A stretch of DNA of 64,000 nt. Source: Parcubacteria group bacterium (GTDB lineage Bacteria; Patescibacteriota; Patescibacteriia; Buchananbacterales; UBA6539). Under the pieces are notes generated by a model, which was not told the DNA's origin, did not search any database, and saw nothing but the letters and a program-made list of their open reading frames with translations. The translations under genes were made by a program, and so were the position numbers. Location of the stretch: positions 27,951-91,950 of the forward strand of contig NYZP01000034.1 of assembly GCA_002687175.1 (NCBI GenBank), written 5' to 3'. Positions 20,548-46,074 of this stretch are shown here, in pieces. Each line of letters opens with the position of its first letter. Position 1 is the stretch's first letter.

Positions 20548-20564
20548 CATATTACCTTAAAAAA

Positions 20565-20707
20565 TAGTTTTAATTTCAGGGAAGTGAGGTGTGATTCCTC
20601 CGCTGACCCGCAACTGTGAAACCTCTATCTAAATTAGGTAAGGGGTTAAGCCAGACCACTGAAATTAGAGCTAACTATAATTCACTAAGCTCTTCGAGGT
20701 ACGAGAG
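20565..20707 (+). promoter_or_regulatory. Cobalamin riboswitch (short, class-II-like)
   Basis: AGGGAA.TGAGGTGTGATTCCTC.GCTGACCCGCAACTGT...AAGCCAGA (B12 box); closing helix tagttttaatttcag/ctgaaattagagcta; P13-like hairpin ctcttcgaggtacgagag. Confidence 0.9.
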
Positions 20708-20736
20708 TCGGTGATGTCTGATATGGACATTTTCGC

Positions 20737-36239: not shown

Positions 36240-36292
36240 AGAGAAATCAACATAGCGCCCCTTTAACGGGGGCGCTTTTGCTTAAGCAAAAT

Positions 36293-36796
36293 ATGATAAA
36301 AGAACGAAAATTAAATAGATATTCAAACTATAATTATAATTTACCAGGTTATTATTTTATTACGATATGTGTCCAGGATCGTATAAAGTATTTTGGAAAA
36401 ATTGGTGATGGTCGGATGATTTTAAATAAATACGGAAAAATTGCAATTAAATATTTAATGAAAATCCCAAATTTTTATACGAACGTTGCCATTGATGAAT
36501 TTGTGATAATACCAAATCATATTCACATTATTATTGAAATTAAATCCGTAGGGACAGAACAATGTTCTGTCCCTACGGGGGTCAAAAATATTAATTATGG
36601 TTTATTGTCAAAGGTGGTTAAATCCTTTAAAGACGTTACAACCAAAGAAATTCACGGTGCATTGAATGATTACCATTTTCAATGGCAACGTTCCTTTTAT
36701 GATCATATTATTCGAGATGAAAATGGTTTATATAATATTAGGCAATATATAATTAATAATCCTTCGCAGTGGAACAGAGACAGAAATAATGTTTAA
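36293..36796 (+). mobile_element. REP-associated tyrosine (Y1 HUH) transposase, RAYT-like
   Basis: GYYFITIC, PNHIHII and WQRSFYDHIIR...IRQYIINNP motifs; internal GTAG...CTAC palindrome. Confidence 0.88.
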
Positions 36797-41275: not shown

Positions 41276-41338
41276 TGTTATCCTGAACTTGTTTCAGTAT
41301 CTCATTCAACGAGATTCCGAAACAAGTTCGGAATGACA
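41276..41338. repeat. REPIN-like inverted doublet of GTCAT-type hairpins
   Basis: tgttatcctgaacttgtttcagtatctc-7nt-gagattccgaaacaagttcggaatgaca; arms 23/28 complementary. Confidence 0.75.
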
Positions 41339-41356
41339 ATAAAAAGGTTTAAACTC

Positions 41357-42967
41357 ATGTTTAAAATAAAAATCGCATTACTAACAGTACTGTCCGGAGT
41401 AGTTATGTGGCTGGCCCATAATTATTCTATTTTGTGGTTCGTCTCTTTGATTGGTTTAATTCCAATACTGTATATAGTCTACACCCAAAATTTAAAGCAT
41501 TATCAAAATTTTTTGGTTGGTTTTGTTGCCGGTACTATCATGCTGGCCGGTGTCATGCTGTGGCACTGGAATATGTTGCCGCTTGATTGGGCTGGCATTA
41601 ACAATTCAGCCAGCGAACTATTTTTAGTTTTTTATATCTGGATATTGTCGTCAACTACCGCTGGCCTCATTGGGCTTTGGACATTAGGCTTAGGATATTT
41701 AAAAAGAAATAATTGGTTTGACTTATTATTGGCTCCGGCGTTGTGGGTGGTGATTGAGTTTATTAGATCAATTGTTGTTTCAATTTTGTGGCATGGCGAG
41801 GGCTCGACAATTGGATCACACTGGAGCATATCTTTTGTTGGTTATGATCTAGCAGCAGCAAATTTTTTGTTACCATTTGGGGCCATCGGCGGCGTGTACA
41901 TTTTAAGTTTCATCGTTATTCTGTTTAACCTACTTTTATTTTTTTATTTCAGAGATTATTTAGAAAAACAGAATTTAACAATTCATTATAAATTAGCCGG
42001 GGTTGTTATTTTAGTTATTGTTATTTTTAACATTGGCAATTCAATTATTCGTCATCAGTCAGAGCCAGAAAAAATTGTTCCAGTGGCTGTGGTTAATACT
42101 TACTTAGAATCATTTTCGCGAATAACCAAAGATCAGTTTGGAGATATCACTGATAGCCATAAGGCTCTGCTTAGCACTATCAAAAAGGAGAATCGTTCTC
42201 CTAAAATAATAATTTTTCCTGAAGACTCAAGGTTCTTAGTTGGTTTAACAGTTGCCGAAGAACAAAATTTTTTAAAAGAAATATTTAATGATCAAGAAGT
42301 TTTAATTATTGATTCTGCAAGAATACCCAAAGAAGAAGGCAAACCAGTAGCTTTAACTTTTAATTTTTTAAACATCACGGAAGATCAAATCGTTTTTTCT
42401 GATAAACAATTTTTAATACCACATGGTGAATACATTCCTTATTTAAGCGCCGGTATTCTTAGATTAACCGGCAATGGCGAATGGGTAGATAATTTCAGTG
42501 CCTCCCGTGGATTTTCCAAAGGGAAAAATGTAAAATTAGTTGACTTTATGGATTTTAAAATTGGTGCCTTGGCCTGCTCCGAAGCAATGTCATTATCATT
42601 TAATCGTAAACTGGTTGATCAAGGAACTGGTTTTATTATAAACATAGCCTCACACTCATTATTTAACGGTTCAAAAATTTTGTATAATCAGATTTTAAAC
42701 ATGGGCAAGTTACGGGCTATTGAAAATAATCGATACTACGTTCATGCCGGAAATTTTGTTCCTTCGTTTGTTATTGATAATCAAGGCAGGTTAGTTCAAG
42801 AGTCTGATTGGGGAGAGGATTCATTAATTTATCAAGATATTGCGATTATTGAAAGTGATTCTTTCTACAACCGTTTTGGACGCTGGATCTTTTCTGGATT
42901 ATTCATACTAATTATCTTCATAGGTCTATTAGTTAGATTAAAGCCTAAATTTGGGAAATATATCTGA
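41357..42967 (+). CDS. lnt: Apolipoprotein N-acyltransferase
   Basis: Multi-TM N-terminus; nitrilase triad FPE, K..LIP.GEYIP and ACSE; RAIEN. Confidence 0.85.
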   Translation: MFKIKIALLTVLSGVVMWLAHNYSILWFVSLIGLIPILYIVYTQNLKHYQNFLVGFVAGTIMLAGVMLWHWNMLPLDWAGINNSASELFLVFYIWILSSTTAGLIGLWTLGLGYLKRNNWFDLLLAPALWVVIEFIRSIVVSILWHGEGSTIGSHWSISFVGYDLAAANFLLPFGAIGGVYILSFIVILFNLLLFFYFRDYLEKQNLTIHYKLAGVVILVIVIFNIGNSIIRHQSEPEKIVPVAVVNTYLESFSRITKDQFGDITDSHKALLSTIKKENRSPKIIIFPEDSRFLVGLTVAEEQNFLKEIFNDQEVLIIDSARIPKEEGKPVALTFNFLNITEDQIVFSDKQFLIPHGEYIPYLSAGILRLTGNGEWVDNFSASRGFSKGKNVKLVDFMDFKIGALACSEAMSLSFNRKLVDQGTGFIINIASHSLFNGSKILYNQILNMGKLRAIENNRYYVHAGNFVPSFVIDNQGRLVQESDWGEDSLIYQDIAIIESDSFYNRFGRWIFSGLFILIIFIGLLVRLKPKFGKYI

Positions 42968-43010
42968 ATCCTTGACTAATTTAATTAGATAGATTATCAT
43001 AATTAAAACT

Positions 43011-43109
43011 ATGACTTCCCAACGAATTAACATTTCGACTGCGCTCAGTGCAGGCATTATTATTAACATTATTATCCAGCCTTTAGGTGGAAGTCTTTCG
43101 ATGAAGTAA
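43011..43109 (+). CDS. Ile-rich attenuator leader peptide (32 aa)
   Basis: MTSQRINISTALSAGIIINIIIQPLGGSLSMK; promoter TTGACT-17-TATCAT at 42972-43000. Confidence 0.8.
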   Translation: MTSQRINISTALSAGIIINIIIQPLGGSLSMK

Positions 43110-43132
43110 ACACTAAGCAATACGATCTGACA

Positions 43133-43157
43133 GACCTTCCACCAGGAAGGTTTTTTT
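43133..43157 (+). terminator. Attenuator terminator (Ile)
   Basis: accttcc acca ggaaggt plus T-tract; competing antiterminator ggtggaagtct (43086-43096) pairs with agaccttccacc. Confidence 0.8.
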
Positions 43158-43260
43158 GATTGTTTTGCTTGGGCAGAACATATACTTAGGAGGAGGGCAC
43201 CTGCTCTTTGTCACAACTTAACCAGAAACTTTGGAAAATTTACAGAAGGAGAAACATAAC

Positions 43261-43890
43261 ATGAGTTCAGGTAGTCTTTTAATGAATGACGTTCCCGACG
43301 GGAGTGTAGCTACTCGTTTTCAAACTGAAGACTATATTAAGGCGATGATCGGTACCATTGATTTTGGTGACGTAACGATTGGACCGGAAATTGTAACAAA
43401 GGTTTTCCACCGTTGTCAGGAATTGGCAACTCAAGGAGTTACCTTTGACGAAGCTCAAGCTTCGTTTATACTACTGGTCTTGGAAGAATTTGGTTTAGAG
43501 TTAGCCCAGTTCAAATGCTTGTCCGGTCAGGTTACAGTATCTTTTGGCGAGGACAGAGAATCGATATGTGACGCAACCATAAAGGTTGATACCGGCGTCG
43601 ATGAGCCAAAGCATGTAGCTTATGAGGATGCTACACCAGTTAGAGCCTTAAACGGTGCTTTGCAGAAAGTTGTTGTTTCTTTAGCTGACGGGATTACCTT
43701 AGGCAATGTTGTTAAGGAACGTATTCCAACTTCTGATGGCGCTCCAGAGGTTTATCGGGCTACTATTACCTTGGAAAATTGTACTGATACGTGGACCTCT
43801 GTTGGCGTTGGACCGAACCTGATTGAGGCCTTTATTAAGGCCTTGCTCGATGGCTATCGCTATGCCGCTTATCGGCACAATTTGCCATAA
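43261..43890 (+). CDS. Stand-alone CimA-type (citramalate synthase) linker and C-terminal regulatory domain, no catalytic barrel
   Basis: ELATQGVTFDEAQASFILL, DATIKV, PVRALNGALQK and WTSVGVGPNLIEAFIKALLDGYRY resemble the CimA C-terminus; AAGGAG SD. Confidence 0.8.
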   Translation: MSSGSLLMNDVPDGSVATRFQTEDYIKAMIGTIDFGDVTIGPEIVTKVFHRCQELATQGVTFDEAQASFILLVLEEFGLELAQFKCLSGQVTVSFGEDRESICDATIKVDTGVDEPKHVAYEDATPVRALNGALQKVVVSLADGITLGNVVKERIPTSDGAPEVYRATITLENCTDTWTSVGVGPNLIEAFIKALLDGYRYAAYRHNLP

Positions 43891-43909
43891 TCCTGGTTAA
43901 AATGCTCAT

Positions 43910-43941
43910 AGCTGGTCACTTTTTAGTGATCAGCTTTTTTT
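43910..43941 (+). terminator. Intrinsic terminator
   Basis: agctggtcact/agtgatcagct plus T-tract. Confidence 0.75.
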
Positions 43942-44085: not shown

Positions 44086-44139
44086 ATGAGATTTATTGCT
44101 CGAACAAACCTACTGGGTTTACTGCTAGCCAACAGCTAG
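44086..44139 (+). CDS. Leu-rich attenuator leader peptide (17 aa, LeuL-like)
   Basis: MRFIARTNLLGLLLANS; codons CTA CTG ggt TTA CTG CTA; promoter TTGACA...TG-TAACCT places the start near the ATG. Confidence 0.8.
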   Translation: MRFIARTNLLGLLLANS

Positions 44140-44180
44140 GTGGTTTGAGTTGTAGATAAAAAATACAAGTAATCAATCAT

Positions 44181-44207
44181 CTAGTTCAAATCTGGGCTAG
44201 TTTTTTT
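44181..44207 (+). terminator. Attenuator terminator (Leu)
   Basis: ctagttca aatc tgggctag plus T7; ggtttgagttgtagat (44142-44157) can pair with atctagttcaaatc. Confidence 0.75.
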
Positions 44208-44255: not shown

Positions 44256-44636
44256 ATGGCCAGTATGGAGTCTTGCTGGGAACTAGCTGATGTTAGATTA
44301 TCTACTGTTAGGTGTGGAGAACAAATGGTTTTTGTTAATCTAAGATTTGGTCAGGAAAATCATAATGATACCTCAAATGACAGCTGTCTTTTTTCAGCCG
44401 TGATTAAAGCTATTGCCAGAGCAACAGACATTGAACTATCTTTGATTCAATTTAATGTCCGGCAGGTAAATGATCACGAGGTAGAAGTTCACGCTACAAT
44501 TCGCAGCAATGGACAATTAACTATTGTTACTGGAATTGATAATGATATTATCTCAGCTTTTGCCAAGGTGGTGGTTGCGGCTGTTAACCGTTCTTTAGAG
44601 AAAAATAAGACGCCAGGATTTATACCTGGATGTTAA
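44256..44636 (+). CDS. Stand-alone LeuA-type allosteric (dimerisation) domain
   Basis: WEL..V...V.L..G......AV.KAI.R.T.IEL.L..F.V...NG....G.D.DII.A.AK..V.AVNR pattern; GAGGAG SD. Confidence 0.75.
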   Translation: MASMESCWELADVRLSTVRCGEQMVFVNLRFGQENHNDTSNDSCLFSAVIKAIARATDIELSLIQFNVRQVNDHEVEVHATIRSNGQLTIVTGIDNDIISAFAKVVVAAVNRSLEKNKTPGFIPGC

Positions 44637-45041: not shown

Positions 45042-45111
45042 CGGCGTGTAGCTCAGGAAGAGCGCCTTGCTTGGGGCAAGGAGGTCGTAGGTGAAAATCC
45101 TGCCACGCCAA
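45042..45111 (+). tRNA. Atypical tRNA-Pro(UGG)
   Basis: Cloverleaf: gctc/gagc D-stem with 5-nt loop, ccttg/caagg around CT-TGG-GG, gtagg/cctgc T-stem with TGAAAAT loop, C1-A72 mismatch, no encoded CCA. Confidence 0.75.
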
Positions 45112-45197: not shown

Positions 45198-45272
45198 ATG
45201 AAAAAAGCAATTTCTGAAAATTTAGCCCATAAGTGGTTTTTCGTCACTTATTTTACTGACCGAACAGGTTAG
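45198..45272 (+). CDS. Aromatic-rich attenuator leader peptide (24 aa)
   Basis: MKKAISENLAHKWFFVTYFTDRTG; promoter TTGACA-17-TAGTCT at 45158-45186. Confidence 0.75.
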   Translation: MKKAISENLAHKWFFVTYFTDRTG

Positions 45273-45322
45273 CTGGCTTTATTTATAGTAATTGTTTAAA
45301 CAAAAACTTAAAAAATAAAGTC

Positions 45323-45349
45323 AACTGACCGACATAAGGCCAGTTTTTT
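45323..45349 (+). terminator. Attenuator terminator (aromatic)
   Basis: aactgacc gacataa ggccagtt plus T-tract; antiterminator 45267-45284 pairs 17/18 with 45313-45330. Confidence 0.75.
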
Positions 45350-45392
45350 GTTTTTTGGGAGTAGCATGGAACCTTATAACAGGGAGGAAAAA

Positions 45393-45866
45393 ATGGAAAC
45401 TCAAGCCGAAGGAGATATTGTGGGGTTCGAAGTCCAACTGGGTAGTGCTGTTTGTAGTGTTTTAACTACACTGCCAGATAAGAATATTACTGACCGGGAG
45501 TTGGTGATCAAGAAGGCCTTACTTTATGTCTCGGTTAATGGGTCACAAAGGGCCAAGGCCAATAAAACTATTCGTCAGTTAGTGGCGGCAACACCAGTTT
45601 GTTACGGCGTACTGCGCAAGAATACGTTTTGGCGAATAGTTTTGGACTATTTGACTGTTGAAGAAGCGGTTCAGGCATATTTGGTACGTTTCCCAAAAAC
45701 CTTGACTGATCGACAACGTCAAAGTATCATTGACTATTTGGTTGACGAAAGAAAGTTTTCATTCGAGTTAGTCAATCAGTGCATGGTTAAGTTTGGCCGC
45801 CGTCGACGAATTGGCTACAAACATAGCTGTACCCGTAAAAGTCATCATGGTTTTGTATCCAACTAG
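45393..45866 (+). CDS. Hypothetical protein under the aromatic attenuator
   Basis: GGGAGG SD before ATG 45393; no recognised motif. Confidence 0.65.
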   Translation: METQAEGDIVGFEVQLGSAVCSVLTTLPDKNITDRELVIKKALLYVSVNGSQRAKANKTIRQLVAATPVCYGVLRKNTFWRIVLDYLTVEEAVQAYLVRFPKTLTDRQRQSIIDYLVDERKFSFELVNQCMVKFGRRRRIGYKHSCTRKSHHGFVSN

Positions 45867-45879
45867 GAGGATAGTTTAT

Positions 45880-46074
45880 ATGAGTGGAACGTGTTTGGTG
45901 ATCAAAAAAGGTCAAGAGGATCTTATTGAGAGAGTGTTATCGGCTGCTTTTCCCGGCCTGGAATTTGAACCAGTTACTAACGATTCGAAGCATATGCTTC
46001 GGGTCAAAGGTGATTCCGACCAAGTCGGAGAAGTTCGTTCTTTGTTTAATGGAGTAGAGCAAGTTGCCTACTAG
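45880..46074 (+). CDS. Stand-alone DAHP synthase ferredoxin-like (Phe/Tyr-binding type) regulatory domain, 64 aa
   Basis: AGGAGG SD; LVIKKG.E..IERV.....GL......LRVKGDSDQV....LFNGVEQV resembles the type I-beta DAHPS N-terminal domain. Confidence 0.6.
   Translation: MSGTCLVIKKGQEDLIERVLSAAFPGLEFEPVTNDSKHMLRVKGDSDQVGEVRSLFNGVEQVAY

Follow-up and report, generated by a model that had tools for sequence, protein, structure and literature searches.

Transcription attenuation through a leader peptide is known classically from the ilvGMEDA, leu, thr and pheA leaders of Escherichia coli. The ilvB, leuS and trp leaders of actinobacteria are described as classical attenuators as well (PMC1262725). At the protein level, the isolated regulatory domain of CimA has been found to dimerise and to bind isoleucine (PMC13381585), and both amino-acid supply and the cargo of type IV secretion are counted among the open questions on Patescibacteria (PMC11665869). 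In the open-access literature we found no report of cimA or leuA attenuators, or of headless forms, in CPR bacteria. Here we analyse a stretch of 64,000 nucleotides from a Parcubacteria group bacterium (contig NYZP01000034.1, positions 27,951 to 91,950; the window), part of a 1.12 Mb genome that is 100% complete (G000), in which a predicted isoleucine attenuator precedes a gene for the regulatory end of CimA. Two more attenuated units, Leu and aromatic, follow this Ile unit in the window, and all three lie on the forward strand.

The Ile unit opens with a sigma-70-like promoter at 42972-43000, which is a consensus match only (10/12, spacer of 17 nt), and promoter-type matches barely exceed chance (nine found against 5.7 in shuffles). 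The leader reading frame at 43011-43109 has 32 codons, of which codons 16-18 and 20-22 are Ile (control codons 43056-43076). A run of six Ile in seven codons is unique to it among the 8,704 short ATG reading frames of the whole genome; 14 others have five in seven. An earlier note on this DNA, made from its letters, had proposed an Ile attenuator on the strength of this run, of a segment at 43086-43096 that could pair in either of two ways, and of a terminator 5' of a 209-aa reading frame, and all three features hold. Folding predicts a 1:2 protector hairpin at 43075-43091, which is weak (-5.2 kcal/mol), a 2:3 antiterminator at 43086-43143 (-16.0 kcal/mol) and a 3:4 intrinsic terminator with its U-run at 43132-43157 (hairpin 43132-43153, -11.6 kcal/mol; U-run to 43157), with 43086-43096 pairing either to the 5' arm of the terminator or to 43075-43081. 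The alternative conformers prove mutually exclusive in silico and are set by the position of the ribosome. When its footprint (A-site codon plus 9 nt) was masked in transcripts ending at 43152-43157, a ribosome at any of the six Ile codons left the terminator a probability of 0-0.10 and the antiterminator 0.90-1.0, and one at codon 24, codon 28 or the stop gave the terminator a probability of 1.0. Unmasked RNA favours the antiterminator over the terminator. Where folding is allowed beyond the U-run, an extended terminator is favoured at the last Ile codons, and with this over-extended terminator in place of the real U-run the stalled terminator probabilities become 0.77-1.0 and 0.18-1.0 in two foldings.

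Comparative evidence also supports the attenuator that the earlier note had proposed. Across 14 aligned Ile leaders, seven of the nine terminator pairs show two-sided changes, a score matched in none of 500 shuffles, and the antiterminator is 82% paired, with three pairs changed on both sides and a weaker covariation signal (9/500 shuffles). The five core pairs of the 1:2 hairpin are kept in 14/14 leaders and are invariant or nearly so; its covariation is nil and the core is thus uninformative in this respect. Ile leaders precede 10/10 full-length cimA-type genes examined in the family, Leu leaders precede 9/9 family leuA genes with upstream DNA, and the control amino acid fits the type of gene downstream, Ile with CimA types and Leu with LeuA types. 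Our leader survey took in 44 genes from fetched loci, the class-level ones having been picked after their leaders were seen; four genes had no leader, one doubtful leader was dropped, and 35 of the remaining 39 switch in the ribosome-position test, the exceptions being L035, L068, L056 and L077. An Rfam scan (Leu_leader, Phe_leader, Thr_leader) gave nothing at the gathering threshold, the best match being Phe_leader at 21.9 against 55 bits. With high confidence we predict that a ribosome held up at Ile codons 16-22 allows formation of the antiterminator.

Some further observations concern the surroundings of this leader. Inside it, 5' of the Ile run, lies a 21-nt in-frame palindromic, REP-like stretch (43034-43054), which has an identical in-frame copy in the Leu leader of a genome of another genus (G014, L037:4642) and a related copy of REP-type look at about 33180 of G000:C23. 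At 36278-36796 the window encodes what we take, by its motifs, to be a probable REP-associated transposase. Directly 5' of the Ile unit, 41333-42967 encodes an apolipoprotein N-acyltransferase over the NCBIfam cut-off, which was not seen here in the relatives listed, and a cobalamin riboswitch over the Rfam gathering score, unexpected in a reduced genome, is found at 20553-20717.

The gene that follows the Ile attenuator (43261-43890, 209 aa) is preceded by a strong Shine-Dalgarno sequence at 43246-43251, and a terminator running from 43910 to between 43935 and 43942 closes the unit. Its product matches TIGR00977 at positions 355-517 of 526 with 59.8 bits, below the whole-protein cut-off of 450 bits, has no HMGL-like catalytic barrel, and scores 25.0 bits against a cut-off of 24.9 for Pfam LeuA_dimer (PF08502); by family-membership criteria applied to its sequence, it is not a citramalate synthase. 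Residues from about 21 to 209 align to the last 190 residues of TIGR00977-type CimA (HHalign 99.9%, E 4e-31), which bears out the homology to CimA C-termini on which the earlier note had relied. An AlphaFold model (pLDDT 90) predicts three helices and the regulatory fold, and in a fold search LeuA and Leptospira CMS structures rank first; dsRNA-binding domains are weakly similar in fold (E about 1e-4, TM <0.3). Searched on its own against PDB sequences, the protein gave one chance match. The earlier note had described the protein as the CimA linker plus the regulatory domain, and the regulatory domain stands, but the word linker is too narrow, since the entire three-helix subdomain II is retained from about residue 21. 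Its reading of the GxGPV site as EDATPV agrees with our alignment, in which the second glycine is kept in 63/63 other homologues. Both the GxGP and DY motifs, which line the ligand site of the LeuA/CimA regulatory domain, are missing, and at residue 191, a Ser in 62 of 63 homologues, the protein has Phe. On sequence grounds, the suggestion of the earlier note that ligand binding may be altered or lost is supported; the note had proposed no role for the protein.

The two units downstream, which the earlier note had not picked up, have a similar arrangement. The Leu attenuator at 44086-44206 comprises a 17-codon leader (44086-44139, five Leu in six codons), an antiterminator and a terminator (44181-44200), and it precedes a headless LeuA-type regulatory domain of 126 aa, identified by profiles (44256-44636), which has lost the GxGP motif and shows the same Ser-to-Phe change as the headless CimA; the single search made found no same-length homologue of this tail. 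The aromatic (Trp/Phe/Tyr) attenuator at 45198-45350 comprises a 24-codon leader (45198-45272), an antiterminator and a terminator at about 45324-45349. It is followed by a 157-aa protein of an unnamed family (45393-45866), which in relatives lies 5' of DAHP synthase or PDT and for which the Atlas gave nothing usable, and by a 64-aa ferredoxin/ACT-like protein (45880-46074) in the slot that DAHP synthase occupies in relatives. The 64-aa model (pLDDT 84) fits the ferredoxin/ACT fold, and the TyrA ACT domain tops the fold search (Z 8.5, rmsd 2.1, 64 aligned), tied with designed proteins. The family is found in 3/31 order genomes, the three from which it was built, all of them without DAHP synthase, and in both other genomes the gene lies directly after the PDT gene. 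Assignment to the ferredoxin-like domain of DAHP synthase, PF18152, was tried and given up for want of a sequence or profile match (probability 1.9%); position and fold remain, and the link to DAHP synthase regulation is a positional lead only. A loose genome-wide scan for leaders with terminators produced 83 noisy candidates and missed the Leu leader. Low-scoring tRNA genes lie within the island (window 45042-45111, L032:5795, L033:9245 and L037:3704) and are possible insertion points.

An HMMER scan found two homologues of the 209-aa protein of about the same length and predicted start, P0002 (214 aa, 43% identical over residues 4-206) and P0005 (226 aa, 32% identical, on a 1.7-kb contig), which align from residues 4 and 11. 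They too are without the GxGP motif, form one clade with the window protein (97-98% SH-aLRT) and share with it newly conserved residues in the C-terminal helix. Their loci were sought in metagenome and genome contigs and not found, so that their starts and leaders are provisional. Most other short matches are pieces of full-length genes from short contigs and were left out of the headless count, and word-based searches matched only the query proteins themselves. Homologues of the same length at 43% and 32% identity argue for selection. In a neutral-drift simulation none of 300 runs kept the frame open to 65% identity, and the codon score of the ORF is typical (46th percentile). The frame is probably kept by selection. 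This bears on the possibility, which we judge to be unlikely, that genome reduction removed the catalytic halves from an orphan attenuated cimA and leuA, leaving tails that drift and whose motif loss is decay. Such a relic would be consistent with the full-length genes at the same locus in relatives, with the long branches of headless rows in a quick tree, with a broken gene in one class genome (L054, a 347-aa frame) and with the three headless CimA tails that have no Ile leader; it is harder to reconcile with diverged homologues sharing an N-terminus, with a frame that drift closes in simulation, and with a Shine-Dalgarno sequence, a terminator and a switching attenuator that are all intact, and it would require that precisely the catalytic part disappeared from each of the Ile and Leu neighbours and that both acquired the same Phe.

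Across the class, the LeuA-dimer domain is present in 47/401 genomes, and 12 of the 69 matches lie in frames of <300 aa. Several of the headless domains have Ile or Leu leaders, with another such case in G022. At loci of family f54 a headless CimA with GxGP kept follows an Ile attenuator and branches at another place in the quick tree, and the 5.5-kb stretches read there showed no tandem Leu twin. In that tree the main CimA/LeuA split has headless forms to either side, which implies at least two origins; a common clade of the CimA-type headless forms is compatible with the data (AU p 0.35), so that many independent origins are unsupported. Both GxGP glycines are lost in 5/15 headless domains and GxG is kept in the other ten (10/15), so ligand blindness is not general; full-length CPR proteins keep GxG in 39 of 42 cases and hence do not look feedback-resistant. 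The 191 column, which belongs to the second ligand helix, has Phe in 6/15 headless forms against 0/42 full-length CPR and 0/29 reference proteins (one Tyr), and the Ser-to-Phe change is seen to either side of the CimA/LeuA split. The one reference with Tyr at this column, P0007, is a full-length TIGR00977 CimA (554 bits) that has lost both motif glycines as well and is a candidate natural feedback-resistant enzyme.

The loss of uL30 is a marker of Patescibacteria, and uL30 was not found in 5/5 genomes, which makes a patescibacterial origin of the window likely. Between ndk and rpsL, members of the family hold full-length cimA and leuA and, variously, proB, PDT/TyrA and DAHP synthase, all of them feedback-controlled steps. 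Judged by their best NCBIfam models, the genes that share these leaders fall into two CimA subfamilies and three of LeuA, which suggests repeated replacement. Of 40 long LeuA-dimer proteins, two being PALP fusions, 37 and 38 retain the catalytic motifs. Such a fusion of a PALP (threonine-synthase-like) enzyme with a C-terminal LeuA_dimer is seen in class genomes at L050:10354-12252 and L060 (622-aa frame). The downstream steps were for the most part not found. In the complete G000 genome we found no HMGL-like domain, so no catalytic half elsewhere, and no catalytic CimA/LeuA, LeuC, LeuB or IlvD. LeuC and IlvD were found in 0/19 family genomes, and each in 1/33 genomes overall; LeuC was found in 0/5 further headless-bearing genomes; and Iso_dh is present in 1/19 family genomes. 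The one genome with LeuC and IlvD is a class genome, G055, which carries a full ilv/leu cluster (L050 = G055:C11), unlike the others searched. Chorismate synthase was found in 0/31 order genomes though DAHP synthase is present in 17/31, and ProA, IlvE and IlvC gave nothing over cut-off in five genomes each. Small unnamed ORFs between the cimA and leuA genes of relatives may be co-regulated (L032:2404-3055, L033:6345-6990, L034:7260-7948, L037:3798-4462, L039:12172-13172), and similar-looking ORFs of 255-280 aa precede the island TyrA-PDT fusion (L032:6317-7165, L034:10591-11373, L035:8428-9216, L044:4183-4950), with no Pfam match among the three scanned.

Island enzymes thus lack downstream, and some lack upstream, partners in these genomes, which is our ground for giving an even chance to the view that island products work in a host cell. 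An entry enzyme is useless to an apparent auxotroph that cannot process its product and must serve a cell with the remaining pathway, namely a host; PDT and ProB without partner enzymes would likewise be useful only in a cell with the rest of the pathway, and a tail without catalysis can matter only via a partner. We infer that the simplest partner that fits the sign of the switch is host CimA, whose Ile sites lie between regulatory domains. Our main reading, to which we give a probability of roughly 0.4, is that a starvation-induced and likely ligand-blind CimA tail acts in the host cell, lifting Ile feedback on host CimA. Shortage of Ile would stall ribosomes on the Ile codons, the antiterminator would form and the headless CimA gene would be read; the product would be exported, perhaps by a VirB4-type system, and would pair with host CimA in a mixed regulatory dimer whose defective Ile site weakens feedback. 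Effector delivery by this route has been speculated upon (PMC11665869; PMC12102498). A VirB4-like ATPase is present in 5/5 genomes, but VirB4 is found in about 80% of Patescibacteria (PMC12102498) and so is not specific support for export. Work on IPMS (PMC9860122) suggests that in a mixed dimer inhibition could persist or activity be lost, which counts against lifted host feedback, and since the protein is about 30% identical to canonical tails of CimA, the dimer interface may no longer match.

That the tail stays in the CPR cell and serves there as an adaptor or signal protein induced by starvation, its partner or ligand being new, is about as improbable as a relic. This would make export unnecessary, and the stable fold predicted by the model, the new residues that the three homologues conserve in their C-terminal helix and the weak dsRNA-binding-domain likeness could be understood in this way; yet separate Ile, Leu and aromatic units, each with a domain of the matching pathway enzyme (for the third, by slot only), better fit enzyme-specific targets, and no such target enzyme was found in G000. 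Still less probable is that the domain is host-directed in another manner, soaking up the amino acid or inhibiting the host enzyme to cause precursor spill-over. That an isolated domain binds Ile with mM Kd (PMC13381585), that ten of the headless forms keep GxG, and that truncation impairs IPMS (PMC9860122) are points in its favour, but the window protein has lost the binding motif, a domain with mM affinity would soak up little, and blocking host Ile synthesis during Ile shortage has the wrong sign for the switch. That the leader is no functional Ile attenuator, its terminator being constitutive or otherwise controlled, is very improbable, since the preference of naked RNA for the antiterminator, the terminator favoured at the last Ile codons in folds beyond the U-run and the ineffective codon mutations in S. 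coelicolor ilvB (PMC1262725) are set against a clean position-dependent switch at the real U-run, covariation in both terminator and antiterminator, and a leader amino acid that tracks enzyme type.

Under the host reading of the CimA tail, the locus names a candidate cargo, a trigger (uncharged tRNA-Ile, -Leu or -aromatic) and a host target, and these are testable in vitro without culture. A broader and rather doubtful extension is that the island is a toolkit for farming host amino-acid metabolism, in which each amino acid has its own attenuator, set before a captured committed-step enzyme or before an exported ligand-blind domain that de-represses the enzyme of the host; in G000 the Ile, Leu and aromatic units would all have been reduced to modules without enzymatic activity, and the Ser-to-Phe change would be a convergent closing of the pocket. 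Should the host model fail, amino-acid-specific attenuation is still kept in apparent auxotrophs, and its leaders would offer inducible switches for a group lacking them; the natural substitutions, for their part, may close the CimA/LeuA feedback site.

Compared with known systems, the attenuation switch itself is of a known kind. The window leader has in common with classical attenuators the run of control codons, the 2:3 and 3:4 hairpins, the U-run terminator and, less surely, a 1:2 hairpin, and is unlike them in being Ile-only, in controlling a non-enzyme whose pathway was not found in the genome, and in lying below all Rfam gathering scores. Like TIGR00977 CimA, Leptospira CMS (PDB 3F6G/3F6H) and M. 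tuberculosis LeuA (3FIG), the protein has subdomain II and a regulatory domain; unlike them, it is without the TIM-barrel or subdomain I, has lost GxGP and DY, and has Phe for Ser at 191. As a free-standing amino-acid regulatory module it resembles IlvH/IlvN of acetolactate synthase, which (PMC13381585) differ in partnering a catalytic subunit of the same genome and in keeping their ligand site, where for the window protein no partner was found. New here are the headless Ile and Leu units in tandem, the change at the ligand site that they share, the aromatic unit as a third, and the occurrence across the family of committed steps without their pathways.
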